From: a virus
Virus record (IMG/VR): IMGVR_UViG_3300045988_180190
Length of the DNA stretch: 64,000 nt
Direction: 5' to 3' (one strand)
A program made the translations under genes and the position numbers. A model generated the notes under the pieces. It was not told the origin of the DNA and ran no database searches. It worked only from the letters and a program-made list of their open reading frames with translations. This document shows, piece by piece, positions 3,365 to 64,000 of the stretch (the stretch's first letter is position 1; the number at the start of each line of letters is the position of its first letter).

Positions 3365-3560
3365 ATTATTGAGTAATATGCCCGCAGCAAGCGGGCAAAA
3401 TTAAACAAGGGACACAAGCCCTTACACCCATGAAATAGTATCATGGCTGACATTCTCCAACCACTAAAGTAGTTGGGTTCTCCTAACCTCACGGTTTAGG
3501 TTTTCTGTTTCATCGGCGACTGCATTGGATGCTTCTGCATCCTTTAGTCTTACACCACCT
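3365..3560 (-). ncRNA. candidate omega RNA (reRNA) of TnpB element 1
   Basis: It overlaps the 3' end of tnpB and the sequence downstream, as omega RNAs do. Visible stems on the minus strand: ccaactactttagtggttgg, gggcttgtgtccc, gcccgcttgctgcgggc. The extent is approximate. Confidence 0.45.
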
Positions 3561-4663
3561 CCACAGACAAACACGACTTGCCCAGCCGCTAAAATATTTT
3601 TAGCTGCGTTTATATCTCTATCTAATACACTTCCGCAGACTGGACATGTCCAGGACCTTTCGGAAAGCTTTAAGTTTTGTTTGATATAACCGCAGTGATT
3701 GCAAGTTTTAGAGGAAGGAAAAAATCGATCAATGATTTTTAGCTCTCTTCCATACCACTTACATTTGTATTCCAATATATTGCGCAACATACTCCAAGAA
3801 GAATTGGAGATAGCGTGTGCTAACTTATGATTTTTAAGCATATTTTTTACTGCAAGATCTTCCATAACTATCGTTTGGTTTTCACGAATTAGTTTGGTTG
3901 TAATCTTATGTAAATTATCTATACGCTTATTTAAAATTGTTTGATAGCATTTAGCTACCTTGACGTTTGCTTTGGTTCTATTCTTAGAACCTAACTTTTT
4001 GCAAGAAGCCTTACGTTGCAATCTTCGTAATTTATTAAAATCTTTTTTAGTATCCGGATTTTTGAATACTTCCGCATTTGAAGTTGTTATTAAATTGTGC
4101 AGCCCCAAATCCAGACCTACGGATTTATTTGAAACGGGAAGTTTGCAATCTTCATTACGATCTACAGTAATTGAAAAATACCATTCTTGAGAAGGTGTTA
4201 ATCTAACCGTTAAGGAGATTAATTTATCTGTAGGTTTAATTCTCCAATTATCTTTAGATAATTTTAAAGGTTGCTTGGACTTAGCAATATAAACTTGGTT
4301 ATTTTTGATTCTAAACCCCGAAGTAGTAAATCTTGCTGAACTTCCTGAAGATTTCTTTTTAAACTTAGGGTATTTGGCGCGTTTTGCAAAAAAGTTATCA
4401 AACGCTGCGCCTAAATTTTTTATAGCTTGTTGTAAACAAACATTAGATACTTCATTTAACCATGAGTATTCAGGCTGACGTTTCCATTTTGTAAGCTCTT
4501 TCATTAAATCAAACGAACTTAATGATTTGCCTGTTTGCGTAAATGTTGAAGACTTAAGATCAAGACTTTTATTATAGATAAACCTAGCGCATCCCAAGGT
4601 TCTACGTAGAAGAATCTCTTGATCTTTTGTAGGATAAAATCTATGCTTTATAGTCTTTATCAT
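3464..4663 (-). CDS. tnpB: TnpB (OrfB) RNA-guided endonuclease, IS200/IS605 family
   Basis: N-terminus HRFYPTKDQEILLRRTLGCARFIYN. RuvC residues in VGLDLGL, IVMEDL and DRDINAAKNI. Zinc ribbon CNHCG...CPVCG. Confidence 0.9.
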   Translation of the reverse strand: MIKTIKHRFYPTKDQEILLRRTLGCARFIYNKSLDLKSSTFTQTGKSLSSFDLMKELTKWKRQPEYSWLNEVSNVCLQQAIKNLGAAFDNFFAKRAKYPKFKKKSSGSSARFTTSGFRIKNNQVYIAKSKQPLKLSKDNWRIKPTDKLISLTVRLTPSQEWYFSITVDRNEDCKLPVSNKSVGLDLGLHNLITTSNAEVFKNPDTKKDFNKLRRLQRKASCKKLGSKNRTKANVKVAKCYQTILNKRIDNLHKITTKLIRENQTIVMEDLAVKNMLKNHKLAHAISNSSWSMLRNILEYKCKWYGRELKIIDRFFPSSKTCNHCGYIKQNLKLSERSWTCPVCGSVLDRDINAAKNILAAGQVVFVCGGGVRLKDAEASNAVADETENLNREVRRTQLL

Positions 4664-47384: not shown

Positions 47385-47422
47385 ATACACGCCAAATAGG
47401 TTACGTCTTCTATTGGTAGTTT
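47385..47422 (+). repeat. 38-bp perfect direct repeat, copy A
   Basis: atacacgccaaataggttacgtcttctattggtagttt, identical to 47796-47833. Confidence 0.9.
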
Positions 47423-47453
47423 ATTCATTGATAATCCCGAAAGGATACGTAAT

Positions 47454-47477
47454 AGCTTGTCTAGTGAGTAGTTGACT
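47454..47477 (+). mobile_element. orphan IS200/IS605 right-end fragment
   Basis: agcttgtctagtgagtagttgact is identical over 24 nt to the right end of TnpB element 3 (60817-60840). It lacks the left arm of the hairpin and has no tnpB. Confidence 0.7.
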
Positions 47478-47795: not shown

Positions 47796-47833
47796 ATACA
47801 CGCCAAATAGGTTACGTCTTCTATTGGTAGTTT
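47796..47833 (+). repeat. 38-bp perfect direct repeat, copy B
   Basis: Identical to 47385-47422. The spacing is 411 bp. Confidence 0.9.
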
Positions 47834-48237: not shown

Positions 48238-48621
48238 GTTAAAGGGTTAACCCGCAGAGAAAACCGAAAACTGCGGGAGCAGCTTAGGGGACTGGCTGCC
48301 ACAGTCGTAGGAAAAAATAAATTGGGGATTTATTAGCTTATTAAAACATTAAAGTTTCTATCACCCTGAACCGCTTAAAGCGATCAGATGGTGTCCCCGA
48401 AAGCTACTTGCCTAACCTAATTACAAGCCCGTGGAAGTTGAGGGTTTTTGTGTGCAATTTCAGTCTTCATCCGAATTTGCCCTTGTTTATTGCATTTAAA
48501 CTAAATATTCAAATGCAACTATTTAGACTATCTCCACTTTCTCCGACTCTCACCCTGAAGATAGGTGGTTTCATCCCTCGGAACAAGGATTAGCGAAATG
48601 CTTGAAAATGAACTAAAATAA
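48238..48621 (-). ncRNA. candidate structured ncRNA filling the spacer between tRNA-Pro and tRNA-Thr
   Basis: 384 nt on the same strand as both tRNAs, relatively GC-rich, with no credible ORF. Stems include cccgcag/ctgcggg, gcagc/gctgc and cgcttaaagcg. The decamer ttcagggtga occurs twice. Confidence 0.35.
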
Positions 48622-51654: not shown

Positions 51655-52164
51655 CTATTTCTCCTCCCAAGTACAGGTGACTATATTCCCAGATTCCTCG
51701 ATAGTAGGCTCTGTGTGCTTGACAATAGGGCGGGCGCAAGTCCAAGAAGAGTACTCAGCAGGGCAATCCGCCCATTCAACAATAAATCGGTTTTTATATT
51801 GCTCTGGAAGAATCTCCAGAAGTTTTCTTTTCCGCCACCGTTCGCACTCATCGTCTCTCACCTCGCACATCTCACCGATTTTAAGCTTCCCTTCGCCCGT
51901 GAAAAGCTCGTCCGTGATGGCGGAGACAACCTTCTGTAAATACTCGTCGCGCTCGGCGTTGCTATTAAAACATCTGCCTTGAGGATGATAATTATACTTA
52001 TCTGCTTCTCCGTGAAGAAATATAATGTCTCCTTCAAACGCTGGTTGTATTACAATTCTAACGCGTCCATCAATCTTTCGTTTCGGCAAACCCTCTTGCT
52101 CCAATATTTGCATGGCAAGAGCCTTTTCAGCCTTCCAAAACTGAATTTTCAATTTTTTACTCAT
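51655..52164 (-). CDS. tandem paralog P5 (long form)
   Basis: The true ATG at 52164 gives MSKKLKIQFWKAEKALAMQILEQEGLP ... NAERDEYLQKVVSAITDELFTG ... IVTCTWEEK. Confidence 0.75.
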   Translation of the reverse strand: MSKKLKIQFWKAEKALAMQILEQEGLPKRKIDGRVRIVIQPAFEGDIIFLHGEADKYNYHPQGRCFNSNAERDEYLQKVVSAITDELFTGEGKLKIGEMCEVRDDECERWRKRKLLEILPEQYKNRFIVEWADCPAEYSSWTCARPIVKHTEPTIEESGNIVTCTWEEK

Positions 52165-52166
52165 GT

Positions 52167-52658
52167 TTATTTCTCCTCCCAAGTGTATATATCTTCGTTG
52201 ATTTTCGGTTCTATCCGACGCTCAATCGGACGGGCATACATAAAACCCGTCCAATCATTGTCCTGACCGTTTTCCATGATATAACGGTTTGCAAATCTTT
52301 TAGGCAAAATTGTTATAATTTTTCTTTTTTCCCATTCATCATTCTTGTAATTTCGCACTTCACACAACTCCCCTGATTTCAGCATTCCTTCATTGTTTTT
52401 TCCAAACTGTTCTTCGCTTATCCAGTGGATAACGTTTTTAAGGTATTCGTCGCGCTCGGCGTTTGTATCAAAATGTTTTACAGGAATGCTCAAATTGCCG
52501 CGTAAATCTTCATCACAAAGATAAATACGGTCGCAACAAAGTTCGGGGAATCCCGTACCTACATGTTCAGAATCTCGAAAGCTCCCCTCTTGCCCCAATA
52601 TTTGCATTACGAGGGCTCTTTCAAATTTTACGAATCGGATTTTTAGTTTTTTAGTCAT
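52167..52658 (-). CDS. tandem paralog P6 (long form, most divergent N-terminus)
   Basis: MTKKLKIRFVKFERALVMQILGQEG ... NAERDEYLKNVIHWISEEQF ... GELCEV ... ARPI ... DIYTWEEK. Confidence 0.75.
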   Translation of the reverse strand: MTKKLKIRFVKFERALVMQILGQEGSFRDSEHVGTGFPELCCDRIYLCDEDLRGNLSIPVKHFDTNAERDEYLKNVIHWISEEQFGKNNEGMLKSGELCEVRNYKNDEWEKRKIITILPKRFANRYIMENGQDNDWTGFMYARPIERRIEPKINEDIYTWEEK

Positions 52659-52680
52659 AGTTATTTTTACCTTTTTCTTT

Positions 52681-52740
52681 TTATATTTATCTTCTTCTTT
52701 TTATATTTATCTTCTTCTTTTTATATTTATCTTCTTCTCT
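52681..52740. repeat. 20-bp tandem repeat x3
   Basis: ttatatttatcttcttcttt twice, then ttatatttatcttcttctct. It spans the 3' end of ORF 52687..52884 and lies just upstream of P6. Confidence 0.9.
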
Positions 52741-52884
52741 TTGTTCTTTTATTTTTAAAGCAGCACGATAAATAGCATCGCACCTAGGATTATTTTCTCT
52801 TAGCGACTCGTATGTCTCAATAGTTGAGTCTAAGTGCTTATCGTTTAGCGACATTAAATCTCTTACGATTTCCCAAGCTTCCAT
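52687..52884 (-). CDS. small hypothetical protein whose C-terminus is encoded by the 20-bp repeats
   Basis: 65 aa, ATG start. The tail EEDKYKKKKINIKRRR is read in three different frames of the repeat unit. Confidence 0.45.
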   Translation of the reverse strand: MEAWEIVRDLMSLNDKHLDSTIETYESLRENNPRCDAIYRAALKIKEQREEDKYKKKKINIKRRR

Positions 52885-52899
52885 TTGTGATGCTCGTTA

Positions 52900-53079
52900 C
52901 TATACATCTTTGTTCTCGGATGCTTTTGGGTAATTTAATACCTCTATGTCTCTTTTGCTGAGTGAGCGTCTATAGTCTATTATTATTGGACGCACCGCAT
53001 ACAGAGTTAATGCCATCCCAAGAAAAGCTCCTGCTATGGCTATTAAAACAGCTATTACACAATAAATTGCGATATTCAT
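52900..53079 (-). CDS. small single-pass membrane protein (59 aa, below the ORF-track cutoff)
   Basis: My translation is MNIAIYCVIAVLIAIAGAFLGMALTLYAVRPIIIDYRRSLSKRDIEVLNYPKASENKDV. Confidence 0.35.
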   Translation of the reverse strand: MNIAIYCVIAVLIAIAGAFLGMALTLYAVRPIIIDYRRSLSKRDIEVLNYPKASENKDV

Positions 53080-53080
53080 C

Positions 53081-53314
53081 TTAGTTGACTTCCTTTCTTA
53101 TTTCTTTAGTAATTCTTCTTTTTAAAATTGCTCTACGGCGATGAGAGCCTCGCTTTTGAGCATTGCGACGAGACCTATTGCACCTACCGGTCTCGTCCCA
53201 ATATCCTAATGGCTTTCCATTATCACGCACGTCTGCACAAGAAAAGGCGCCGCCATCACTTTTTAATAATTTAGCATGTTTTGCCTTAGGCGTATCTTTG
53301 CTTGTTCTACTCAT
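53081..53314 (-). CDS. small highly basic protein
   Basis: 77 aa, Arg/Lys-rich (RNAQKRGSHRRRAILKRRITK). Confidence 0.45.
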   Translation of the reverse strand: MSRTSKDTPKAKHAKLLKSDGGAFSCADVRDNGKPLGYWDETGRCNRSRRNAQKRGSHRRRAILKRRITKEIRKEVN

Positions 53315-53642
53315 GACATAGATTTTTTGCAGCCTCTTCGGTTAGCTTGATTGACATAATCTGCAGAGATTTCGCCTCATTTTTCCAAATGTAAAGCTTT
53401 CGATTTATCTCTTTTAAGAAATCTCTCAGCTCTATATTCTTTTTCCTCAACCGAATGGCTTTACCTTTATACTTATCGTTTTCAGCTTGTAGCTCTTGAA
53501 TGCGACTTTTGAGTGATTCCTCAGTTGGAGTAAAATATTCACCAACTAAGCAATCTGTTTTGGTGCATTTTGCTTCGCAATATTTCGAGTTATAAAATGC
53601 ACAGTTCTCACAATTAATATCTATACCATACTCATCTTTCAT
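53307..53642 (-). CDS. Cys-cluster plus coiled-coil protein (paralog of 54168..54620)
   Basis: MKDEYGIDINCENCAFYNSKYCEAKC ... RIQELQAENDKYK is shared with MKDKNGINIECQNCEAFEYCKDS ... RIQELQELVSTLK. Confidence 0.55.
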   Translation of the reverse strand: MKDEYGIDINCENCAFYNSKYCEAKCTKTDCLVGEYFTPTEESLKSRIQELQAENDKYKGKAIRLRKKNIELRDFLKEINRKLYIWKNEAKSLQIMSIKLTEEAAKNLCHE

Positions 53643-53857
53643 TTTATAACGTCTCCAAGTTTTTCGATAATAATAAGATTAGGTGCAACAGACGCTTTGA
53701 TAAGGGCTGGAATTACAGACATAATTAAGTGTGCCAATGCAAATGCGAGTCCAAAAATGGCTCCCCCAAGCATTACAATAAACACTGCACGTTCGTCGTT
53801 TTTATCAAACCACCACATGCGTCCACCACAACAAACATCTAGTATGGGTTTTTGCAT
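53639..53857 (-). pseudogene. N-terminal fragment of a SAM-dependent (DNA) methyltransferase fused to a hydrophobic tail
   Basis: MQKPILDVCCGGRMWWFDKNDERAVF is a typical MTase motif I region, followed by the unrelated hydrophobic sequence IVMLGGAIFGLAFALAHLIMSV. A strong gaggagga RBS precedes the ATG at 53857. Confidence 0.45.
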
Positions 53858-54168
53858 TAATCCTCCTCTTCTTTTAAATCTTTTATAATATCCATGCATT
53901 TAATAGACAGCCTTAATAACGAGCATCTATATTCATCATCTCGTTTAACAGAGTTTAGCTTAGCTTCAACGATATCTCTTAGGAGTTCCATCTCGCTAAG
54001 ACTAAATTGCTCTTGCCTTTTGTTCCAAGCTTCTTCTGCGTCATCCTCGTTAAGGAAGGGTCCTGATAACGCACCGCAATTTACACAAGCTGTGTGATAT
54101 ATACCGATAGGCAATTGTTTAGTATATATGCGGTTACTTCCACAGAATGGGCAACGCTTTGTTTTCAT
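53857..54168 (-). CDS. lar: Lar-family restriction alleviation-like protein
   Basis: KRCPFCGSNRIY ... ACVNCGALSGPF ... DAEEAWNKRQ matches the Lar pattern CPFCG ... C..CG ... A..AWN.R. Confidence 0.7.
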   Translation of the reverse strand: MKTKRCPFCGSNRIYTKQLPIGIYHTACVNCGALSGPFLNEDDAEEAWNKRQEQFSLSEMELLRDIVEAKLNSVKRDDEYRCSLLRLSIKCMDIIKDLKEEED

Positions 54169-54620
54169 TAGTTATTCTCCTCGCTTTCTGCCTGTTTAAG
54201 CCGTTCTAAAACGTCTTTATTATCGTGCATCGTGCGGTCGAGAAGCTCCATTGAAAACTCCTCCACTCTTCTTTGAAGCACCTCATTGTGTGCTTTCAGC
54301 TCTTTTACTTCTTCCCTCAGTCTGTCCGCCTCCTGCGCTTCCGCGCGTTCGGACTCTTGGACAACGTATAGCTCCTTTTGAAGCTCTGCAATTCGCTTGT
54401 GCAACAATGAGGTTTCATGCCTGCGCTCTTGTTCCTTCTTCGTTAGCTTTTGCTTTAAAGTTGATACAAGTTCTTGCAACTCTTGAATGCGGGCTTCATA
54501 TGCTTCCTTGCTCGGAGAAAATGCCCTATTTTGGCATTGTTCATATGCAGAACTATCTTTGCAATATTCAAATGCTTCACAATTTTGGCATTCAATATTG
54601 ATTCCGTTCTTGTCTTTCAT
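54168..54620 (-). CDS. Cys-cluster plus coiled-coil protein (paralog of 53307..53642)
   Basis: The track start is a GTG. The ATG at 54620 gives MKDKNGINIECQNCEAF..., followed by a long heptad-like region. Confidence 0.55.
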   Translation of the reverse strand: MKDKNGINIECQNCEAFEYCKDSSAYEQCQNRAFSPSKEAYEARIQELQELVSTLKQKLTKKEQERRHETSLLHKRIAELQKELYVVQESERAEAQEADRLREEVKELKAHNEVLQRRVEEFSMELLDRTMHDNKDVLERLKQAESEENN

Positions 54621-54813
54621 CGTTATCCTTTTTCCTTTTTTTATTTTCTGCTTCACAAGGTGGTTCTAAAAACCAAGACACGGGTATTTCAAAACCCTCC
54701 TTTACGCAGGCTTCGTTGTACTCATTCTCGTCGAAAAATCGATCACATTGAATACATTTAGAATTGTTTTTATCTGCTTTTGGACAAAATGTTTTATCTT
54801 TATAGGTGTTCAT
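54592..54813 (-). CDS. small Cys-containing hypothetical protein
   Basis: 73 aa, ATG start. The IS left end begins about 12 nt upstream of its start. Confidence 0.45.
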   Translation of the reverse strand: MNTYKDKTFCPKADKNNSKCIQCDRFFDENEYNEACVKEGFEIPVSWFLEPPCEAENKKRKKDNDERQERNQY

Positions 54814-54864
54814 TATGTTTAATCCAGAAAACTCACCAGTTTATCTGGTGAGATGAATGGCTTG

Positions 54865-55266
54865 TTATTTAGATTTTTGTTGTTCAATATAATTTTTAAT
54901 ATTTTCTTCCGAAGTGCTTCCGACCGTCCCGTAAAAAGTACCCTTACTCCACAATCCTGTACCCCAAAACTTTTTCTGTTTTAGGGAGGGGAAGGCAAAA
55001 AATAACCTCACGGCACTAATTGATTTTAAGGTTTGTGCTATGGTTACGGGAGCTACTGTATGAGGTGCCTCTATTAAAATATGTACATGATCGGGCATAA
55101 TTTCTAAAGCTCCTATTTTCCAACCATAAGCTATAGCTGTTTCATTTAAAATGAGCTTTAAAACTACAGATTCTTTTTCTTTTAAAACAGGGTGTCTAAA
55201 TTTTGTACACCACACAATATGATATGCCAGTTGACAAATAGAATTATTTTGTTGACTTTTTTCCAT
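54865..55266 (-). CDS. tnpA: IS200/IS605 Y1 (HUH) transposase TnpA
   Basis: 133 aa. HUH motif in PDHVHILIE, catalytic Tyr region GTFYGTVG, and YHIVWCTKFR at the N-terminus. Confidence 0.9.
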   Translation of the reverse strand: MEKSQQNNSICQLAYHIVWCTKFRHPVLKEKESVVLKLILNETAIAYGWKIGALEIMPDHVHILIEAPHTVAPVTIAQTLKSISAVRLFFAFPSLKQKKFWGTGLWSKGTFYGTVGSTSEENIKNYIEQQKSK

Positions 55267-55287
55267 AATTAATAATCATATAAAATA

Positions 55288-56385
55288 ATGATTAAAACAA
55301 TGTCAATTAAAGCACCCTTAAACCCTGAAGATTATTTTCTGTGGTTTAATCAGTGTGCTGATATGTTTAATCAATATGTTGATTGGGCGTTTAAAGTTAA
55401 ATCTTATAATAAAAACAAAGCTCATAAGGAACTTTATCAAAAATTTCGTTGTGATTATCCACAAATTCCTAGTGCACTTGTCCAATGTGTTAGAGACATG
55501 GCTCTAGAATCTGTAAAAAGGGATAAATTTAAATCAAAACCCAAGAAAAAGAATAATTCCAGCTTAAGGCTAAATAAGTGTCTAATAAACTTAAAAGGAA
55601 ATTCTATTTCTGTAATTCACCCTAACAAACGAATTAAATTTAATTTTGATTATGCAGATTATTTTTCTAACTATAAAAATGCCAAATTTCGTAGCGCAAC
55701 TTTACAGTATAAAAAGCTAAGTCATACAATCGTTTTAAACTTACAATTCGAGTTTCCGGACACTCCCTTGAAAGCAGAAGGGGAAATAATAGGTATAGAT
55801 AGAGGTATTTACAACCTTGTGTCTTGTTCTAATGGACTGCAAATTAAAGGTAGTCAGATAAGAGCAAGACAACGAAAAGATTTGTTTAATAAAAGAAATA
55901 TTCAATCAAAAGGAACAAAATCTTCCAAACGTAAGCTTAAAAAGCTAAGCGGAAGATATGCTCGGTTCAGTGCGAATATTAATCACTGCATAAGTAAACA
56001 AATTGTTTCGATTCCTAATCTAAAAACCATTGTATTTGAAAATTTAAAAAACATCGGTAAAAAGCGTAAAGGAAAAAAGCTTAACAAATGGATTCATTCC
56101 TGGTCTTTTTACCAACTTCAAATATTCACGGAATACAAGGCTTTAGAAAAAGGAATCGAAGTAAAATATGTTGACCCAAGGTATACTTCGCAAAAGTGTA
56201 GTGCTTGTGGTTTCACGGACAAGAATAACCGGCATAAACATAAATTTGTTTGCAGACATTGCGGACATACTTGCGATGCCGATTTAAATGCCGCTGTAAA
56301 CATTAAACAAAACTATATTCTCTCTTTAACTAATAAAGAGCAGGCTGCTGTCAACCAGCCTATTGTAGCAAGCAGCAATGCTTAG
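55288..56385 (+). CDS. tnpB: TnpB RNA-guided endonuclease
   Basis: RuvC residues in IIGIDRG, IVFENL and DADLNAAVNI. Zinc ribbon CSACG ... CRHCG. Confidence 0.9.
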   Translation: MIKTMSIKAPLNPEDYFLWFNQCADMFNQYVDWAFKVKSYNKNKAHKELYQKFRCDYPQIPSALVQCVRDMALESVKRDKFKSKPKKKNNSSLRLNKCLINLKGNSISVIHPNKRIKFNFDYADYFSNYKNAKFRSATLQYKKLSHTIVLNLQFEFPDTPLKAEGEIIGIDRGIYNLVSCSNGLQIKGSQIRARQRKDLFNKRNIQSKGTKSSKRKLKKLSGRYARFSANINHCISKQIVSIPNLKTIVFENLKNIGKKRKGKKLNKWIHSWSFYQLQIFTEYKALEKGIEVKYVDPRYTSQKCSACGFTDKNNRHKHKFVCRHCGHTCDADLNAAVNIKQNYILSLTNKEQAAVNQPIVASSNA

Positions 56386-56421
56386 TTACAAGCTAATCAG
56401 TTTATCTGGTGAGTAGTTGAC
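56230..56421 (+). ncRNA. candidate omega RNA of element 2 (extent approximate)
   Basis: It covers the 3' end of tnpB plus the right end, finishing at gagtagttgac (56421). The terminal hairpin is cagtttatctggtg. Confidence 0.4.
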
Positions 56422-56542
56422 AGATCAACTTCATAGGTTACAATTTTCTATGTTGCTATATATCATTAGGTTACACCCAGTTATTAAGGTATACTTAACA
56501 ACTGGGTATGTAAGTGTTACTAAACACACAGGGGTTCCAGCA

Positions 56543-56974
56543 TTATTTACCTAAAATAATAGGTTTAGCTGTACCCTCTACTTCGATTTTTAAACAAGCT
56601 TGCCTGATTCCCATGAAGTAACAGTTTTTAATTTCAGGAGCTGCAATATCAGGGCGTTCAAATTTGTCGATTAAATTTTTCCACCATTTTTTCAGATTTT
56701 TAATATCTTCAGCGTCCCCAAAATCCCTTAAGTCTCCCCATAGCAATACAGCATATGCCGCTAAGGAATGTTCCTCCCCAGGGACAATCTTTACCTGAAT
56801 AGAACCTTCGGATCCATAGGGAACATTACACTTATATCTTTTAGACCAACGGTCTCCATAAGACCAAGTACGAAATAATCCCTTTAAAGCTTTCTCTTGC
56901 TGTATATCTCTTTCGTCGCCATCTCTTAGGGCATCAATCCTAATTACCCCGGCTATATGTGTCCATTGTGACAT
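56543..56974 (-). CDS. hypothetical protein
   Basis: 143 aa, ATG start. Confidence 0.55.
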   Translation of the reverse strand: MSQWTHIAGVIRIDALRDGDERDIQQEKALKGLFRTWSYGDRWSKRYKCNVPYGSEGSIQVKIVPGEEHSLAAYAVLLWGDLRDFGDAEDIKNLKKWWKNLIDKFERPDIAAPEIKNCYFMGIRQACLKIEVEGTAKPIILGK

Positions 56975-57156
56975 ACGTTGTCCTTTCTTTTATTGTTTAA
57001 AATTTTTTTATATTGTTTACACTGATATAGGCATTTAATTGTAACCTTGCTGCTTCTGCATCACAATTGCCGTTTAGTGCTTTTTTTAACGTCTTGCCAT
57101 ATCAAGGAGTATTTTTCCCTACGGCGCAAAATAATTTTGTACCGTAGGGAAGTTAT

Positions 57157-57675
57157 TTAATGTTTCGAGGGATTATATGAATGTTCTTTTATCGCCTGCA
57201 TTAGATCCAAACATCTGTTTCTAGTGGCTATATTGTTACATCCGAAAACCATATACAACTTTGTATCTTCATGAATTACATGGATACAAGGCAGAGTATC
57301 ACTGAGCGTATTCTCAATCTCAGCAGAGTACTTAGGATCCCACTGATTATCTGATAGTGTAATTTTAAGAATTACTCTGTACTTAGTTTTTAACAGCTTA
57401 TTAAATTTATAAGCTGTTAAAAATTTTTTCAATTTACTGCGCATATAGCTAGTAAAAGATAACCTTTGTACATCAATAACTCCAGAGCTGCCTCGTGTAC
57501 GGGTTGTTTCTTTTGTGTCTAGAATCGAATCTTTTTGAGATTCTTTTACAAATTTCAGTACTTCCAAAATGAGCATCCAAGACATTATGACCACCACTAC
57601 TAAGACCGTAGCGTGTATAACATTGAAGTCTCCAACTAATGGTTTGTTTAAAATATTCATTATTGCGTAATTCAT
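57157..57675 (-). CDS. membrane-anchored hypothetical protein
   Basis: N-terminal TM segment VIHATVLVVVVIMSWMLILEVL. Confidence 0.5.
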   Translation of the reverse strand: MNYAIMNILNKPLVGDFNVIHATVLVVVVIMSWMLILEVLKFVKESQKDSILDTKETTRTRGSSGVIDVQRLSFTSYMRSKLKKFLTAYKFNKLLKTKYRVILKITLSDNQWDPKYSAEIENTLSDTLPCIHVIHEDTKLYMVFGCNNIATRNRCLDLMQAIKEHSYNPSKH

Positions 57676-57701
57676 AAGTGTTTTCTTTCTAATAATTTAT
57701 C

Positions 57702-57866
57702 TTATTTACCACTGTATACCCATACCAGGCATGCCATTGACATAACTAAAAATACTGGCTCAACACCGCTAAATGTATCTCCACCAGCAATAGTATTAAT
57801 CAAAATTAGCCCAATTAGAGATAATGCCGTAATTAAAATAATGATCTCAATAAGCATTTTAAGCAT
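57702..57866 (-). CDS. small two-TM protein (54 aa, below the ORF-track cutoff)
   Basis: My translation is MLKMLIEIIILITALSLIGLILINTIAGGDTFSGVEPVFLVMSMACLVWVYSGK. Confidence 0.3.
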   Translation of the reverse strand: MLKMLIEIIILITALSLIGLILINTIAGGDTFSGVEPVFLVMSMACLVWVYSGK

Positions 57867-57946
57867 AGACTTTGCCTGACTGTTTATAAATTAAAAGCGC
57901 AAGGTATTGAACCTTGCGCTGAAAGAATGTTTGCGTTTTATGGAAT

Positions 57947-58528
57947 TTACTCAATGCAAATTCCAAACTGGCTGCAGGTTTCACGCAACTCGTTTACCGC
58001 TGCAATTTCTTTTGCCTTAACTTGTACGTACGCTTCAGAAGCAACCTTGGACGTGGATGCCGCAGTACTCATTTCAGCACCTTTGATTACTCCATTTGCT
58101 AGCCCTGTCAATATAAGATTAAATCCTTGCAAGCAAGTATTATCTTCTATATCGAAAAACTTGGTGTAAATGGCGTCGTACCAACTAAGCATGGTCTGCA
58201 TAGATGTTTCTATAAGCGGCCACCAGGTATTCACGTTGTCCCCAAGTCCTTGCTTAATATATTTTTCTATTTCTTCTGTGGAATAGTCTGAGGCATTGAC
58301 GGAAATGAGAATTCCATTACCGCTTGCCTTAAATATATTTGTAAGGTCCGGGTTCTTTTTACACACAGCGTTGACCGTATACTGTGCAGCCGTTTCCAAG
58401 GACGGTGCAATCACAGAAGCTACAGTGGTAAAATCTGCGGAGTTAAACCATCCTTTAATTTGTGTGCATCCACACAAGGTAGCTATGGACGCAATCGCAA
58501 TAAGTATGCTTGTTTTTATATGTTTCAT
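57947..58528 (-). CDS. lipoprotein
   Basis: Signal peptide with lipobox: MKHIKTSILIAIASIATLCGC. Confidence 0.65.
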   Translation of the reverse strand: MKHIKTSILIAIASIATLCGCTQIKGWFNSADFTTVASVIAPSLETAAQYTVNAVCKKNPDLTNIFKASGNGILISVNASDYSTEEIEKYIKQGLGDNVNTWWPLIETSMQTMLSWYDAIYTKFFDIEDNTCLQGFNLILTGLANGVIKGAEMSTAASTSKVASEAYVQVKAKEIAAVNELRETCSQFGICIE

Positions 58529-58570
58529 TGTATTTTTTCCTTTTGTTAGTTATTTAGTTGAGTGAAAAAT

Positions 58571-59455
58571 TTATTTTTTCTGAAATACTGATTTATTGCT
58601 CTTCAGCTTTCTGTCGAAATCTGCCTTGGATATGCCGGTTATCTCTTCGAATATTTTATAGTCAAAGTTTGGCAACTCAAGTGTTAGAATCACGTCTTGA
58701 ACCGTAGCCCTTGAAAATTCGCGTTTAAACATCTCCTTTTCAGGATGCTTTACCCTCAAAATCCAAAGAGGCCAAGGAATACTACGGGCATCTACGTCTG
58801 TTTCTTTGTTAAAGAAATAACATTTAGGGGATATGGTATTGAAACAACCACAGTTACGGTCCCCAATGTTAAAGGAACCAGTATTGTAGTTACCTATGTT
58901 CTTATCCCCCGTATTTTCGTTGCCGATGTTATATGCTCCACTGTTTCTGTACCCCACGTTAGATACTCCAGTATTATGATCGCCTATATTACCGTGACCG
59001 GTGTTGTAATTTCCTTTATTGCGGGTTCCAGTGTTAAGATTTCCCACATTTGGTCCCCGACTATTTTGGTATCCAATATTGTAATTGGGTCGCGGGGGTA
59101 GGTTATCTAAAGCACGATCTTCATAATACTTTATCCTACGCATGCAGGTTTTAGTAATTTCTTTGACCAGCCTTATCGTTTGACATAATATTTCAGGCGA
59201 GGTTCCCGCCACGTGTTCAATGCAAGTTTTCCCCTTAACGTCTACTTCGAATATTCTCACCTCCTCAAGTATTTCACCATACAAGGCAAAAATCCAGTTG
59301 GTAGAAACTTTATAGTGTGAGTCTTCAATTTTTGCAGCCGGAATCTTGGGAGTCCACTTTCCAGGCTTGTTACCTTGTGGCAAATAATCCGTGTAGTCAA
59401 ACCCGGAATTAATTACTTGATTATCTTCTACTCTAAGAACTATGTAGTTTTTCAT
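58571..59455 (-). CDS. NxGxx pentad-repeat (beta-helix-like) protein
   Basis: Sixteen consecutive pentads: NIGYQ NSRGP NVGNL NTGTR NKGNY NTGHG NIGDH NTGVS NVGYR NSGAY NIGNE NTGDK NIGNY NTGSF NIGDR NCGCF. The track N-terminus (to 59521) is encoded by the IS left end, so the likely start is MKNYIVL at 59455. Confidence 0.7.
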   Translation of the reverse strand: MKNYIVLRVEDNQVINSGFDYTDYLPQGNKPGKWTPKIPAAKIEDSHYKVSTNWIFALYGEILEEVRIFEVDVKGKTCIEHVAGTSPEILCQTIRLVKEITKTCMRRIKYYEDRALDNLPPRPNYNIGYQNSRGPNVGNLNTGTRNKGNYNTGHGNIGDHNTGVSNVGYRNSGAYNIGNENTGDKNIGNYNTGSFNIGDRNCGCFNTISPKCYFFNKETDVDARSIPWPLWILRVKHPEKEMFKREFSRATVQDVILTLELPNFDYKIFEEITGISKADFDRKLKSNKSVFQKK

Positions 59456-59584
59456 ATTATATCCTTTCTTTATTAGGAGTGTCAGAAAACTCACCAGCTC
59501 GTCTGGTGAGCTGAATGGCATCTTTGGTTATTTTGTTTTTTGTTCTTGACATAAATTTAAGTTAGTTGAAAATTTACTTAAACA

Positions 59585-60793
59585 ATGCCTAAAAAGACAA
59601 TATTTAAATCTTATAAATTTCGTCTTTATCCTGAAGATAAAGACAAAGCTTTTTTATCTCAACATTTTGGGCATTGTAGGTTTGTATATAATTACTTCCT
59701 AAAAGAAAAGCAGAATTTTTATCTTAAAAACAAGAAAACTTTAAATTATAACAATTGTTCAGCCGCGTTAACTACTCTTAAAAAACAAAAAGAATACTCG
59801 TGGTTAAAAGACGTGAACTCCCAAAGCTTGCAACAATCTTTAAAGCATTTGGAAACTGCATTTGGAAAGTTCTTTAAAAAAGAAACTAAATTTCCCGTTT
59901 ATAAAAATAAACATTCTTTTAATTCTTTTTCGATACCTCAAAATATTCGCATTGTTAAAAATCGAATTTTTATTCCCAAATTTAAACAAGGCATTCGATT
60001 TGTTAAACATAGGGAATTGAAAGGTAAGATTCTTAGCGCCACAATATCCCTAAACCCGTCGGGAAGATATTTCGTATCTATTTTAACATCACAAGAAATT
60101 GACGTTAAGAAATCTGTTAAAAATCCAAAAATTATTGGGCTGGATTTGGGGATAAAAGACTTCCTTATAACTTCTGACGGATCCAGATTTTCTAATTTTA
60201 AGTTTAAAAGACAGTATCAAACTAAGCTATCTAAGCTTCAAAAATATCTAAGTCGCAAACCCCAACCCAGTAATTCCAAAATAAAACTAAAACAAAAGAT
60301 TGCCAAACTTCACGAGAAGATAGCCAATTCCCGTGAGTATCTGCAACATTGTATTAGTAAACAACTGGTTGAAGAAAACGATGTTATATGTTTGGAAACA
60401 TTATCAGTTAAAAATATGATGAAAAACCACAAGCTCGCTTATGCTATAAGCGATAGTGCATGGACATCTTTTGTTTCCAAACTGGAATATAAATCGAAAT
60501 GGAAGGGAAAAGATATAGTTAAAATAGACCATTTCTTTCCTTCGTCCAAAACTTGCAATAGTTGCGGGTATATTAACCAAAAACTAACGCTTAAAGACAG
60601 GTCTTGGATTTGTCCTAAATGCGGCAAGCTTTTAGATCGAGATATAAACGCGGCTAAAAATATTTTAACCCGAGGATTGACCATAATCCTATCGTCCGCA
60701 ACAGACGATTACAGACATGGAGCTGAAATAAGACTTGGCTTGGATAATTTATCCAAGCCAAGCATAAGCAATGAAGTGTTTAAAATTGAATAG
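59585..60793 (+). CDS. tnpB: TnpB RNA-guided endonuclease
   Basis: YKFRLYPEDKDKAFLSQHFGHCRFVYN. RuvC residues in IIGLDLG, ICLETL and DRDINAAKNI. Zinc ribbon CNSCG ... CPKCG. It is closely similar to element 1 TnpB in its C-terminal half. Confidence 0.9.
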   Translation: MPKKTIFKSYKFRLYPEDKDKAFLSQHFGHCRFVYNYFLKEKQNFYLKNKKTLNYNNCSAALTTLKKQKEYSWLKDVNSQSLQQSLKHLETAFGKFFKKETKFPVYKNKHSFNSFSIPQNIRIVKNRIFIPKFKQGIRFVKHRELKGKILSATISLNPSGRYFVSILTSQEIDVKKSVKNPKIIGLDLGIKDFLITSDGSRFSNFKFKRQYQTKLSKLQKYLSRKPQPSNSKIKLKQKIAKLHEKIANSREYLQHCISKQLVEENDVICLETLSVKNMMKNHKLAYAISDSAWTSFVSKLEYKSKWKGKDIVKIDHFFPSSKTCNSCGYINQKLTLKDRSWICPKCGKLLDRDINAAKNILTRGLTIILSSATDDYRHGAEIRLGLDNLSKPSISNEVFKIE

Positions 60794-60839
60794 CTTTAAT
60801 GCTTTTCAAGCTCACTAGCTTGTCTAGTGAGTAGTTGAC
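60650..60839 (+). ncRNA. candidate omega RNA of element 3 (extent approximate)
   Basis: It covers the 3' end of tnpB plus the right end. Stems are cttggcttggataatttatccaagccaag and ctcactag/ctagtgag. It ends at gagtagttgac (60839). Confidence 0.4.
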
Positions 60840-60847
60840 TGTATTGA

Positions 60848-61345
60848 TTATTGCTTATTGCCTGCAGAATGCATGGCAAAAAATTTTTCAATGGGCATTT
60901 CAATTATTTTTCCTGTTTTTTTATGCCTAAACTTACATACAGTATTTGCTCTGCAGCATTTGGATATTTGGCGACTCCCTCTAAATACAGTAGAACAAGT
61001 TGGACCTATATTTAAGTTATAAAATATATGTGCGAAGGGAAAGTCCTTTAAAGACAATGGCGTTCCCAACGGATACGTAGGGTAATAGTACCCCAGTAGT
61101 GGAGAAATACTAAAATGCGTTAATTTTAGATAGTCAAAAAATGCTTCTTTATAAAGCTTTAAATTCTGATCACTTGCCGAAGTTTTTAACTGCTCATGCA
61201 TTTTGATAAGTCTCTTTACTGCCTTTTCCACCTTATCAAAGAAAAAGCTATCTGTTCGTAGCAATTTCTCGATGTCAAAGAATCCTCCTGCGTAGTCATA
61301 TGTAGCAGGGGGTAGCACTGTCGAACTGTTATCAGAATTATTCAT
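60848..61345 (-). CDS. terL: terminase large subunit N-terminal fragment fused to a 36-aa split-intein N-fragment
   Basis: It ends ...FAHIFYNLNIGPTCSTVFRGSRQISK | CCRANTVCKFRHKKTGKIIEMPIEKFFAMHSAGNKQ stop. GSRQISK is the first half of a TerL Walker A (RQxGK[ST]T). The track start at 61381 is a GTG, and the first ATG is at 61345. Confidence 0.75.
   Translation of the reverse strand: MNNSDNSSTVLPPATYDYAGGFFDIEKLLRTDSFFFDKVEKAVKRLIKMHEQLKTSASDQNLKLYKEAFFDYLKLTHFSISPLLGYYYPTYPLGTPLSLKDFPFAHIFYNLNIGPTCSTVFRGSRQISKCCRANTVCKFRHKKTGKIIEMPIEKFFAMHSAGNKQ
60851..60958 (-). other. split intein N-fragment (IntN, 36 aa)
   Basis: The Cys1 codon at 60958-60956 directly follows the Walker A Lys. The block A-like sequence is C-x4-T-x-C ... 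TGKIIEMPIEKF. Confidence 0.7.
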
Positions 61346-61390
61346 ATCAATAGCAGTCCAACAAAACTTATCCAAAAACACAAGTTTTTT

Positions 61391-62182
61391 TTAAAACACC
61401 CAATTAGTCCAATCAAATTCTGAACCTTTTGGAAATGTGGTATCTAACTCAAATCTTAGTTTTTCAGGAACTTCAGTCCAACCAGACCAAAGAGATTCAC
61501 CAAATTCTTGGGTAGTGGAATGGATTTCCTTCCCCAACAAGTTATCCTCATCTTTTATATCTCTGTGGGGACTAACGAGATATATGCCTTGATTTCCATT
61601 GCCCGTATCTTCATCGGCAAATAATAGGATGAACCTGTTTGAAAAATGTTTTTGAAATTCCAATAACCATCCTATAGGCGTAACCCAAGGCGTAGTAAAT
61701 ATAATTGAACAGTCTGAAACCGCTTGCAATGACGCATTCCATTTACACCCCCAATTAACAACCGACCAGTCATACCAGTCCTTAAATTTACATAGAGTCT
61801 TACAACAAAATTCGATTAGCTCTTGTTTTTGATCTCGTGTGAGATCTTCTACTTTATGAGCAATATCTTTTTGTGTATCCTTAATATATGACTGCAGTAT
61901 ATCAAAGAATTTATCCGGGTCGGTATCTTGGGTAATACGATTGTTTTTACAGCACTGGAGAACTAATTCTTTCCATCTTGTATTTTTTGGGAATTCAGTT
62001 GTTTGACAATATACCACACTGGGATGCTCTAAAATCTTGGGCATAGGTACCAGCTTATTGAAATCCATTTGCATTTTCGGATTCTTATCTGCAGATTTCG
62101 TATTTATGTCGCACAACTTTAATGCTTCCTTTAGCTGAGATTGATTTTTAAACACTAGTTGGTTAAGTACTTCATTGGGCAT
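61391..62182 (-). CDS. hypothetical protein, possibly DUF1281 / Api92-like
   Basis: DFNKLVPMP ... DWYDWSVVNWGCKWNA resembles the NWGTKWN motif of that plasmid and phage family. Recalled from memory, not searched. Confidence 0.45.
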   Translation of the reverse strand: MPNEVLNQLVFKNQSQLKEALKLCDINTKSADKNPKMQMDFNKLVPMPKILEHPSVVYCQTTEFPKNTRWKELVLQCCKNNRITQDTDPDKFFDILQSYIKDTQKDIAHKVEDLTRDQKQELIEFCCKTLCKFKDWYDWSVVNWGCKWNASLQAVSDCSIIFTTPWVTPIGWLLEFQKHFSNRFILLFADEDTGNGNQGIYLVSPHRDIKDEDNLLGKEIHSTTQEFGESLWSGWTEVPEKLRFELDTTFPKGSEFDWTNWVF

Positions 62183-62292
62183 GATCGTTCTCCTGTAAGT
62201 TTAATATGTTCAGATTTATAGAATTGTTATTTAAGATTATTATTGACCTTTAGAGTTTTTGTAATTTACATTTTTTTAGCTTATTCATAATT

Positions 62293-62664
62293 ATGCCTGA
62301 AAAAATTGAATCCAATAATCCAAAGTTCATAGAAAGCTATTCTGTTGAGGATTGGCAAATTGAAACTCCCAATGGTTGGGAGGATATTGAAAGTGTGCAC
62401 AAAACAATACCTTTCGATGTATGGCAGATTGTTACCGCTAACAAGAAAGTGTTGCACTGTGCAGATGAGCATGCTGTCATAACAGAAAACGGGGAGAAGA
62501 CACATGCTAAAAAATCATTGGATAATAATATTATTACCTCAGATGGAATCTCTTCAGTGGTGTCAGTAGATAAATTACCATTACCACCGGAGCATATGTA
62601 TGACATCACCTTAAAAAGTGATACCTCCCATGTATATTTTACTAATGGTATTTTAAGCCATAAT
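62293..62664 (+). other. split intein C-fragment (IntC, 124 aa)
   Basis: Hint-domain blocks: ...VLHCADEHAVITENGEK, block F MYDITLKSDTSHVYF, block G TNGILSHN, followed by Thr +1 (62665). Confidence 0.75.
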
Positions 62665-64000
62665 ACTACTAACATGCTTGTTGCCGCAGATTTATATTGT
62701 AGGATAATTCCTGGTTTAAGAATTGCTACAATTGTACCTAGAGTAGACCAACTAAGTACATTGGGGTACAAGCTGAAAGAAATAGAGCAAGGTTATAGGT
62801 TTAACCCAAGCAAGGTAAACGCAAAATTTAAATCCAATTTGCATTATAAAGAATATGATCACGGCAAGGCTAGAATGTCCTTGCATAGAATGTATTACAT
62901 TCTTACAGATGCTTCAAAAATGCGTTCACCTACATTTGATTGGATTAATTTCGACGAATATCAAGATTTCGATTCAACGTTAGAAAAAGTTGTCAAATCT
63001 ACACAATCTCGTTCCGAATTTAGATCTGTAACCTACGGTGGCACCTCAAAATCAACGGATACTCCTTTGGAGCAACGTTGGCTGGAATCTGCAAGAGGAC
63101 TTTGGAGAATGACTTGTCCTGCTTGCCATTTTGACAATTATCCGGATTTAAACCACAATGTATTGGATATGATACGCCCAAAGGGTTTATGCTGTCTAAA
63201 ATGCGGGAGAGTTTTAAACGTGCGTAATGGTTGTTGGGATTTCGAAGCACCTGCCATGTTAAAATATGGCTTATGGGGATTTCATATACCGCAAATCATA
63301 GTTCCAGCTAATACAGAGAAACAATCAATTTACATCGATATTTACAAAGCTTCGCAATCTTCAGATAAAAAATCATTTTTAGAAGAGTATCTTGGTGAGG
63401 CTACAGAATCTGGTACTAAAGAAATAACAACAAAAGATCTGCAAAATATCTGCATTCTAGGGGATATACGTGACGTACAAAAGCAAGCAATCGCCGCTGT
63501 TCCTCCAAAATATATCTTTAAAGTATCTGGATGCGACTGGGGAGGTTCGGACTACAATCCTGCGACAAGGTCCAAAGCTTCATATACTGCACATTGTATA
63601 ATTGGGGTCACCCCAGATCACAAGTTCGACATACTTCATATGAAAAAATATGCAGGTATGGACTACGATGATATTACGCACTGTATTGCCAAAGATCATC
63701 ATAGATTTGGATGTTATGCTCTCGCTAATGACTACGGTAATAATGCAGTATACGTAAATGAGTTAAAGAAACTTGTTGATCCATTGAAAGTTATCTTGTT
63801 TAAATATAAGGCTACCGGAACCTTCCTTTCGATACCGAAAAATTCCGAGATGTTTAATTTATATTCCCTGCATCGCACAGATAGTATTACAACTTTGTTT
63901 ATGGATGTGAAAAACCGTCGCCTGCGCTCACCACGTTGGGACCAAGTCGTTGAATTTCTAAAAGACTTTTTGGTTTTGACTCGTGTGCCATGGGAGTCCC
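62293..64000 (+). CDS. terL: split-intein C-fragment fused to the terminase large subunit C-terminal part (ORF runs off the right edge)
   Basis: My translation is MPEKIESNNPKF...GILSHN|TTNMLVAADLYCRIIPGLRIATIV ... Walker B WINFDEYQDF ... YGGTSKS ... nuclease-domain VSGCDWGGSD. The frame is open to 64000 and absent from the ORF track because it has no stop. Confidence 0.85.
   Translation, partial: MPEKIESNNPKFIESYSVEDWQIETPNGWEDIESVHKTIPFDVWQIVTANKKVLHCADEHAVITENGEKTHAKKSLDNNIITSDGISSVVSVDKLPLPPEHMYDITLKSDTSHVYFTNGILSHNTTNMLVAADLYCRIIPGLRIATIVPRVDQLSTLGYKLKEIEQGYRFNPSKVNAKFKSNLHYKEYDHGKARMSLHRMYYILTDASKMRSPTFDWINFDEYQDFDSTLEKVVKSTQSRSEFRSVTYGGTSKSTDTPLEQRWLESARGLWRMTCPACHFDNYPDLNHNVLDMIRPKGLCCLKCGRVLNVRNGCWDFEAPAMLKYGLWGFHIPQIIVPANTEKQSIYIDIYKASQSSDKKSFLEEYLGEATESGTKEITTKDLQNICILGDIRDVQKQAIAAVPPKYIFKVSGCDWGGSDYNPATRSKASYTAHCIIGVTPDHKFDILHMKKYAGMDYDDITHCIAKDHHRFGCYALANDYGNNAVYVNELKKLVDPLKVILFKYKATGTFLSIPKNSEMFNLYSLHRTDSITTLFMDVKNRRLRSPRWDQVVEFLKDFLVLTRVPWES

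Follow-up and report, generated by a model that had tools for sequence, protein, structure and literature searches.

A tnpB-only IS200/IS605 element beside a putatively split terminase gene in a phage lineage, its predicted vacant target in a sibling phage, and a predicted RNA-guided homing system

The 64,000-nucleotide viral stretch IMGVR_UViG_3300045988_180190 (the window; coordinates are positions in the whole stretch unless a relative is named) contains three tnpB genes and a single tnpA, as found by tblastn. Two of the insertion sequences (ISs) concerned, an autonomous one (element 2) and one that holds tnpB only (element 3), are carried by a ~170-kb phage genome. Element 3 lies directly 3' of a TTTAT pentanucleotide, close to a putative fragment of the terminase gene terL, and in a sibling phage without the element the same TTTAT is followed exactly by the sequence predicted to serve as the guide of its TnpB. 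The elements are probably best explained as an IS200/IS605 “peel-and-paste” family of this phage lineage, in which TnpA acts in trans and TnpB drives RNA-guided homing. This reading is carried by the anatomy of the elements, their target motif, empty sites in relatives, recent movement and intact catalytic motifs. The mechanism so read is that already known for IS200/IS605 elements with TnpB, in a less usual carrier, a phage. Relatives were collected with the 177-residue open reading frame (ORF) beside element 3 as query, which returned five IMG/VR phage contigs of 110-174 kb; L001 (IMG/VR 3300045988_177643) and L002, both listed under one IMG/VR dataset number, show 93-98% identity to the window in the region of the locus, and neither carries element 3. 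A megablast of 52000-64000 against GenBank phages gave zero matches. The element 3 locus comprises the following features, in which TAM stands for target-adjacent motif and MFE for minimum free energy:

58571..59456, minus strand: pentapeptide-repeat gene; its true start is 59456, and a longer ORF to 59521 enters the element 3 left end
59469..59473, plus strand: TTTAT, the TnpA target and predicted TAM of element 3, seen as an empty site in L001
59474..60839, plus strand: element 3, non-autonomous tnpB-only IS605-type element, 1366 nt
59490..59510, plus strand: left-end hairpin, CTCACCAG-CTCGT-CTGGTGAG
59585..60793, plus strand: tnpB of element 3, 402 residues, ISDra2-like; Cas12f1-like_TNB, OrfB_IS605 and HTH_OrfB_IS605 domains (PF07282, PF01385, PF12323)
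60640..60839, plus strand: predicted scaffold of the omega RNA, sharing sequence with the 3' tail of tnpB and with the right end; MFE -60.8 kcal/mol, z = -6.0
60804..60839, plus strand: right end, consisting of CAA, a perfect hairpin CTCACTAG-CTTGT-CTAGTGAG (60811-60831) and the terminus TAGTTGAC
60840..60859, plus strand: predicted guide/target of the element 3 TnpB, TGTATTGATTATTGCTTATT, that is TGTATTGATTATTGCT(TATT)
60848..61381, minus strand: putative terL N-fragment, 177 residues, assigned from motifs and from the family match of the C-terminal half; the protein is identical in IS-free L001

Element 3 is precisely missing from L001, L002 and L250. The empty allele of L001 reads ...CCTTTCTTTAT/TGTATTGATTATTGCTTATTGCC... 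(the slash marks the junction), with flanks 97.8% identical on both sides, compared with ...CTTTAT/TAGGAGTGTCAGAAAA...GTAGTTGAC/TGTATTGATT... for the occupied allele of the window; at the junctions, CTTTAT/TGTATTG stands against CTTTAT/TAGG...TTGAC/TGTATTG. The element sits 3' of TTTAT with no target duplication and with a one-base T ambiguity at the junction. The original prediction had supposed the flanks to be a former contiguous target, and the comparison with IS-free relatives (L001, no duplication) upholds this, since the predicted guide follows TTTAT exactly in L001: the 23 nt that come after TTTAT there are the same as those to the right of element 3, the vacant site being the TAM plus the predicted target, and the guide proposed at the outset (TGTATTGATTATTGCT...) is letter for letter the sequence found. 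The left boundary had been put at 59483, which is 9 nt short; IS-free relatives and other copies place it at 59474, and the first bases are TAGGAGTGT. The right end had been said to abut the stop codon of the terL fragment: the two are neighbours, with a gap of 8 nt before the stop codon (60848-60850) of the 177-residue ORF. The left end does artificially extend the neighbouring ORF (59457-59521), as had been proposed, the IS-free homologue starting MKHYIVLRV and running to 294 residues; such false lengthening by an IS left end is an annotation pitfall.

In the window, the 16-nt guide match is preceded by TTGAC instead of the TAM, so the occupied allele is predicted to be protected from a nuclease that would presumably require TTTAT, and the flank-derived guide matches only the insertion site of element 3 itself. 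L002 and L250 carry a different empty allele, TTTAT/TATTATATTG (L002 6500-6520, L250 1015-1035, corresponding to window 59469/60840), with mismatches in the seed: compared with L001, TTTAT/TATTATATTGATT... has a 3-nt insertion and a G-to-A change in the TAM-proximal part of the predicted target. This allele should escape cutting by the element 3 TnpB; it could represent a cleavage-resistant form or plain variation. In one metagenome scan, a 26-nt flank probe matched one contig only, and the empty allele of this contig is of the L002 type.

Judged by their residues, both TnpB proteins of these elements keep an intact RuvC D-E-D triad and zinc finger. The element 3 protein matches PDB 8H1J/8EXA at E 7e-73, is aligned across the GLDLG, LET and DRD motifs, and has D187/E271/D353 as its RuvC residues and C324, C327, C343 and C346 as its zinc-finger cysteines; the closest solved relatives of the element 2 protein are Cas12f-like TnpBs (8HR5, 9NZP), its triad is D171/E251/D332 and its cysteines are C304, C307, C322 and C325. 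Domestication, either into a TldR-like regulator or into a weapon against the host or unrelated phages, is hardly to be expected, as the RuvC triad is complete, neither the ends nor the TAM context are damaged, and the flank-derived guide matches the element's own insertion site only. To our knowledge, domesticated TnpB regulators (TldR) have lost nuclease activity. What speaks for domestication is the presence of three tnpB genes in 64 kb and the existence of phage-encoded TnpB-derived regulators, as stated in published abstracts. Inertness of one or both elements, the relation between guide and flank then being a historical footprint, is quite improbable. None of the three ORFs is broken and each has its catalytic residues, copies of element 3 differ at only 5 of 1372 positions, and its right-end hairpin is perfect; relic status would nevertheless suit the mispaired right hairpin, TTCAT flank and adjacent 1.3-kb loss of element 2 described below, and degenerate single-hairpin mini-elements show that decay occurs in the lineage.

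The predicted omega RNA of element 3 lies where the ISDra2 precedent would place it: there, the TnpB-bound right-end RNA of ~150 nt covers the tnpB 3' end and ends in ~16 nt of flank, the TAM is the TnpA target, and the proposed role of TnpB is to make a double-strand break at the donor joint after excision (PMC8612924). Ten of the 68 predicted pairs are kept through double changes relative to an in-family variant (L255/L267), among them pairs of a long stem at 60733-60761 in the non-catalytic C-terminal tail of the ORF. Several observations on the predicted RNAs weigh against the homing reading: the covariation stems from two independent sequences only, the 3' region of element 2 has just a modest folding advantage over its shuffles (z = -2.7), and Rfam searches at gathering and E-value thresholds returned only tRNAs and chance matches, with no family of omega RNAs among them. 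When the 3' regions of 14 distant relatives were folded to a consensus, the right-end hairpin alone emerged.

Element 2, the only element of the window with a tnpA, as the original prediction had noted and the window tblastn confirmed, is organised as follows:

54809..54813, plus strand: TTCAT, 5' flank of element 2 and variant of the usual TTTAT target/TAM, placed by left-end alignment of other copies
54814..56421, plus strand: element 2, autonomous IS605-type element, 1608 nt, with divergent tnpA and tnpB
54832..54852, plus strand: left-end hairpin, CTCACCAG-TTTAT-CTGGTGAG
54865..55266, minus strand: tnpA, Y1/HUH transposase, 133 residues (PF01797 Y1_Tnp, E 2e-33, full model covered)
55288..56385, plus strand: tnpB of element 2, 365 residues; Cas12f1-like_TNB and OrfB_IS605 domains (Pfam PF07282, PF01385)
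56386..56421, plus strand: right end, consisting of CAA, an imperfect hairpin CTAATCAG-TTTAT-CTGGTGAG and the terminus TAGTTGAC
56393..56413, plus strand: the right-end hairpin itself, with two mispairs
56422..56441, plus strand: predicted guide/target of the element 2 TnpB, AGATCAACTTCATAGGTTAC; IS-free L002 reads TTTAT/AGATCAACTTCATAGGTT

In its TnpA, the HUH motif is H60-V-H62 and Y126 is the candidate catalytic tyrosine. The start of element 2, first given as 54825, was 11 nt short; alignment of the left ends of other copies moves it to 54814, the element opening with TATGTTTAATC. On the right, the flank once served as target, since L002 reads GGAATTTTAT/AGATCAACTTCATAGG, that is TTTAT and then 18 identical nt; this right junction is the only one for which a matching empty site was found. 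The left flank, by comparison, is not the original target: in siblings, three genes (~1.3 kb) separate that TTTAT from the gene starting at 54813, and these are missing from the window. The TTCAT at 54809-54813 doubles as the reverse-strand start codon of that gene (54592-54813), whose first codons read MNTYKDK in the window versus MSYKDK in siblings (ATGAGT...). Recombination between two copies or an IS-adjacent deletion are the simplest explanations of the loss. With its mispaired right hairpin, TTCAT flank and lost original left flank, element 2 looks partly compromised, which also weighs against homing as the explanation of the present arrangement.

The slot that holds element 2, between the genes at 54592-54813 and 56543-56974 (window 54805-54813 and 56422-56543; L001 9473-12081; L002 9746-11054), is a hotspot: the window has element 2 minus the three sibling genes, L002 is empty, and L003 has a mini-element at the exact site of element 2. 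In L001, a different tnpB-only element lies 13 nt beyond this TTTAT on the downstream side, and ~108 nt including a hairpin are missing. This third TnpB type of L001, in almost the same spot as element 2, has 371 residues and 37% identity to the element 2 TnpB; its element has its own left end and the same kind of right end. Two regulatory-looking features accompany the ends. At 56417-44 on the plus strand, the right-end TTGAC and the flanking A form TTGACA with TACAAT 16 nt downstream, an outward promoter-like site matching at 11 of 12 positions; 31 such sites were found compared with 23 ± 6.4 in shuffles, and the excess is not clear. On the opposite strand, the left-end hairpins (54832-52 and 59494-514, minus strand) are followed by TTTTCT and look terminator-like, just before downstream phage genes.

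The shared ends of elements 2 and 3, also part of the original prediction, were recovered by a repeat finder, with left boundaries corrected as above: the left-end copies (54825-54866 and 59483-59524) are 86% identical over 42 nt and the right-end copies (56386-56421 and 60804-60839) 81% over 36 nt. The left-end core CTGGTGAGNTGAATGGC occurs in the 64 kb only at the two left ends, where 0.3 occurrences are expected, and the terminus GTGAGTAGTTGAC occurs exactly three times in the window (both right ends and 47464-47476), about one match at up to two mismatches being expected. Four subterminal hairpins with 8-bp stems and 5-nt loops stand at both ends of both elements, and their stems covary among relatives. 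The two are not copies of one IS, as their TnpBs share 28% identity over 182 residues and the terminus TAGTT(G/C)AC is conserved family-wide. At the right end, CAA...hairpin...TAG-TTG-AC in the window is paralleled by GAA...hairpin...TAG-TTC-AC in 14 relatives, and this co-change of CAA/TTG to GAA/TTC fits an IS608-type pairing of a guide triplet to the cleavage site; at the left end, a pairing of GAAAA at the hairpin foot with TTTAT is only suggestive. In sibling phages, about ten distinct insertions have TTTAT or TTCAT directly before their left end, two of them with TTCAT, and TTTAT specifically flanks seven sites besides that of element 3. TTATT as the target was rejected, since the other insertion sites fix TTTAT. 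With the Y1 TnpA of element 2, the subterminal hairpins and the fixed-target insertion of element 3 without duplication, the family has the features of IS200/IS605, of which element 3, for lack of tnpA, is a non-autonomous member.

The hairpin and TAGTT(G/C)AC terminus are widespread: they adjoin TnpBs related to either clade in viral and bacterial contigs unrelated to these phages, including cyanobacterial, clostridial and many viral ones with unrelated TnpBs, and the two TnpBs of the window come from distant clades, so the likeness might reflect nothing beyond family-wide conservation in the IS605 group and say little about TnpA mobilising element 3. This is improbable: the stem CTCACCAG/CTGGTGAG, identical in the two elements, and a 37-nt left-end block appear specific to this phage lineage, the identical stems and the 86% left-end identity being lineage-specific whereas stems elsewhere differ, and element 3 has moved recently. 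A 99.6%-identical copy in phage 177658, with 5 differences over 1372 nt and no change in its TnpB protein, occupies another site, TTTAT/TAGGAGTGTCAG...; this phage is empty at the terL site, and the flanks that it shares with the window are 93-96.5% identical (3.5-6.6% differences). TnpA relatives were sought by tblastn, with 133 confirmed candidates of which the best 80 were listed. Among these best 80, phage 177658 gave no TnpA-related match, and close matches (93-97%) came only from phages 181894 (L013) and 180451 (L255). Mobilisation of element 3 in trans, as put forward in the original prediction, gains support from this copy without a related tnpA match in its phage. An element 3-like variant is found at further sites, and copies of element 2 (95% and 90% nucleotide identity) stand at other sites in phages 180451 and 181894. 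Copies at differing sites and the near-identical element 3 pair indicate that the family is active in this phage group. Comparison of these copies supports movement of tnpB-only members without a transposase of their own and, by all appearances, shows one transposase lineage serving several nuclease lineages. The closest bacterial TnpA relatives in a genome scan are cyanobacterial, at 56-59% identity.

The transposition chemistry, omega RNA, cleavage and homing that we infer would run as follows. Element 2 would supply TnpA, which would recognise the subterminal hairpin at each end, cut 3' of TT(T/C)AT on the left and after TAGTTGAC on the right, and place the single strand anew on the 3' side of a different TTTAT, leaving no duplication. 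Since element 3 has the same hairpin stems, it is proposed to be moved in trans by the TnpA of element 2 or of a co-infecting relative. Each TnpB would bind an omega RNA made from the 3' end of its own gene and the right end and ending in ~16-20 nt of flank, and the complex would cut TTTAT plus flank, a sequence found only in copies without the element. The target would be TTTAT+TGTATTGATTATTGCT, at the 3' end of the terL N-fragment ORF, for element 3 and TTTAT+AGATCAACTTCATAGG for element 2. Repair of the break from an IS-bearing copy would either restore the element after excision or spread it into a co-infecting IS-free sibling.

For the second of these outcomes, a drive, a cleavable element-free allele has to exist in related genomes, and L001 holds a perfect site. 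It is also possible, although unlikely, that the elements are ordinary passengers that TnpA moves alone, with TnpB at most restoring them after excision and giving no drive. All element types are found at many TTTAT sites, as transposition predicts; homing into co-infecting phages is called theoretical in PMC13565253, with supporting evidence from plasmids only; and a single lineage has element 3 at the terL site. This last point weighs against spread by homing. The site is occupied in the window, in ENA ERZ28663791 scaffold_15 (169,893 bp) and in a Logan contig, separate records of which either may be the one that the window itself comes from; the remaining near relatives are empty there and more distant ones are without the site altogether, and with one occupied lineage, spread by homing cannot be told from a single transposition. 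Neither occupation of the terL site across diverged genomes nor co-conversion of flanks, as homing would leave, was found, only the window lineage being occupied. Against pure passengers, a perfect TAM-plus-target allele (L001) and an occupied allele both occur in closely related phages, and the proposed mechanism does not tell an excised donor joint from a naive IS-free allele. RNA-guided homing together with TnpA in trans remains the preferred reading.

The original prediction also stressed that element 3 targets an essential locus. This emphasis is weak: the guide covers the 8-nt spacer, the stop codon and only the three final codons of a variable tail, and this tail of the terL N-fragment is different in more distant relatives and not constant even in a close one. 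The tail being poorly conserved, the link to an essential locus is one of position and not of sequence constraint; a double-strand break is harmful anywhere in a phage genome. The 177-residue ORF has no Pfam or PHROG match and ends in ...GSRQISK followed by ~37 residues starting CCRANTVCKF. The ORF from 62293 (plus strand, to 64000, where it runs off the window) matches the terminase large-subunit family PHROG 675 (E 9e-30) and starts with ~124 residues ending ...GILSHN/TTN. Joined, the halves rebuild the P-loop GSRQISKTT, although they lie on opposite strands ~0.9 kb apart, and from these sequences the terminase looks as if split at the P-loop by an unusually divided intein with pieces of ~37 and ~124 residues. 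Intein similarity of the insert is weak (gp41-1 intein, E 0.17), and the spliced TerL found no terminase match among PDB sequences. The split arrangement is conserved in all five relatives and identical in IS-free genomes, so the split predates the insertion. That the IS itself caused it is excluded, since IS-free relatives carry the same 177-residue fragment.

Among comparable systems, ISDra2 from Deinococcus radiodurans, made up of TnpA, TnpB and a right-end/omega RNA (Karvelis et al. 2021, PMC8612924), has a TnpB of the element 3 family, a pentanucleotide target 5' of the left end, no duplication and a guide expected from the right-end flank; it differs in its target (TTGAT, versus TTTAT/TTCAT here), whereas element 3 is without tnpA and has a phage carrier. 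IS605 of Helicobacter pylori has divergent tnpA and tnpB, like element 2, and subterminal hairpins at both ends, and IS608 of the same species resembles the present elements in the spacing of 16-18 nt between left cleavage site and hairpin and in a right terminus a few nt past the hairpin. IS606 is reported to insert next to TTTAT. Unlike in IS605, IS606 and IS608, the TnpA here is at most 59% identical to that of any bacterial genome found, and the ends are common to three TnpB lineages. TnpB-driven transposon homing was reportedly described by Meers et al. in 2023. The likeness to TnpB homing systems lies in a vacant site made of TAM plus flank, with a perfect IS-free allele in siblings; homing at vacant sites also features in bioRxiv 10.1101/2023.11.20.567912. 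The difference is that the published evidence concerns bacterial chromosomes and plasmids, while the partner here would be a co-infecting phage genome. The occurrence of tnpB in phages has been noted before, for example in cyanophage A-1(L). PMC13565253 cites T4 SegF/SegB and an intron endonuclease (Birkholz et al. 2024) of phages. Such phage homing endonucleases are likewise selfish nucleases beside conserved phage genes and would cut the allele without the element in a co-infection; the present system differs in being RNA-guided with a 5-nt TAM, in also transposing and in having a weakly conserved tail/spacer target. Element 3 and mini-elements of ~46-52 nt lack tnpA and keep TnpA-type ends, as do palindrome-associated transposable elements (PATEs), elements of the miniature inverted-repeat transposable element (MITE) kind and tnpB-only (IS1341-type) elements; the mini-elements here have a single hairpin, not two.

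If homing operates, the system would be a natural, sequence-defined instance of “non-restorative” TnpB homing between viral genomes, which PMC13565253 lists as theoretical only. With occupied, perfect empty and putatively resistant alleles all in hand, it is a good test system and no new kind. It also offers two compact TnpBs (365 and 402 residues) of distant clades with a predicted AT-rich TAM, TTTAT. Loss of neighbouring DNA and repeated use of insertion sites shape the variable regions of these phages. A bolder, rather unlikely view is that the phage IS605 community acts as an RNA-guided gene drive and an interference weapon among co-infecting siblings, to which the L002 allele would be resistant: one TnpA lineage would serve at least three distant TnpB lineages as well as single-hairpin mini-elements, each TnpB would cut IS-free genomes where its own element is inserted, and IS-free competitors, broken beside the split terminase gene, would die or acquire the element.

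The third tnpB of the window belongs to element 1 (3464-4663, minus strand, 399 residues), with 42% identity to the element 3 TnpB. This element is without tnpA, and its ends, near 3440 and 4760, have a different hairpin and terminus (...CCAACTACTTTAGTGGTTGGAGAATGTCAGC). In phage 181894 an element 2-type IS fills the intergenic slot that matches the slot of element 1.

The mini-elements form another layer of this family, and one lies in the window:

47425..47476, plus strand: single-hairpin mini-element with an element 3-type right arm and TAGTTGAC, preceded by TTTATTCAT

The left part of this mini-element matches the left end of the third TnpB type of L001, making it a hybrid, and a remnant of element 3 as the source of the 47.4-kb right-end copy is excluded on the same ground. 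The mini-elements (~46-52 nt) are built from a left-end leader, a lone hairpin and TAGTTGAC; they follow TTTAT or TTCAT and are also found in L003 (1-140), L004/L009, L008/L011/L012 and L010 (phage 181110). They may be mobile, or they may be scars of recombination between left-end and right-end hairpins. At one and the same site, TTTAT/GTTTTAGATTTC, L255 has a complete IS like element 3 and L010 a mini-element, and the leaders and stems of the two differ, which excludes that mini-elements are always in-situ deletions of a full element at the same site. The site shows repeated use of one target, and insertion-tolerant sites may be few in such dense genomes. At 48238-48621 (minus strand), between tRNA-Thr and tRNA-Pro, lies a relatively GC-rich non-coding stretch of ~380 nt, with no convincing ORF and no Rfam match inside even at a permissive threshold. 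A 36-nt direct intergenic repeat, ACACGCCAAATAGGTTACGTCTTCTATTGGTAGTTT, occurs at 47386-47421 and 47797-47832, ~410 nt apart; a small ORF lies between the two copies, the first of which immediately precedes the mini-element.

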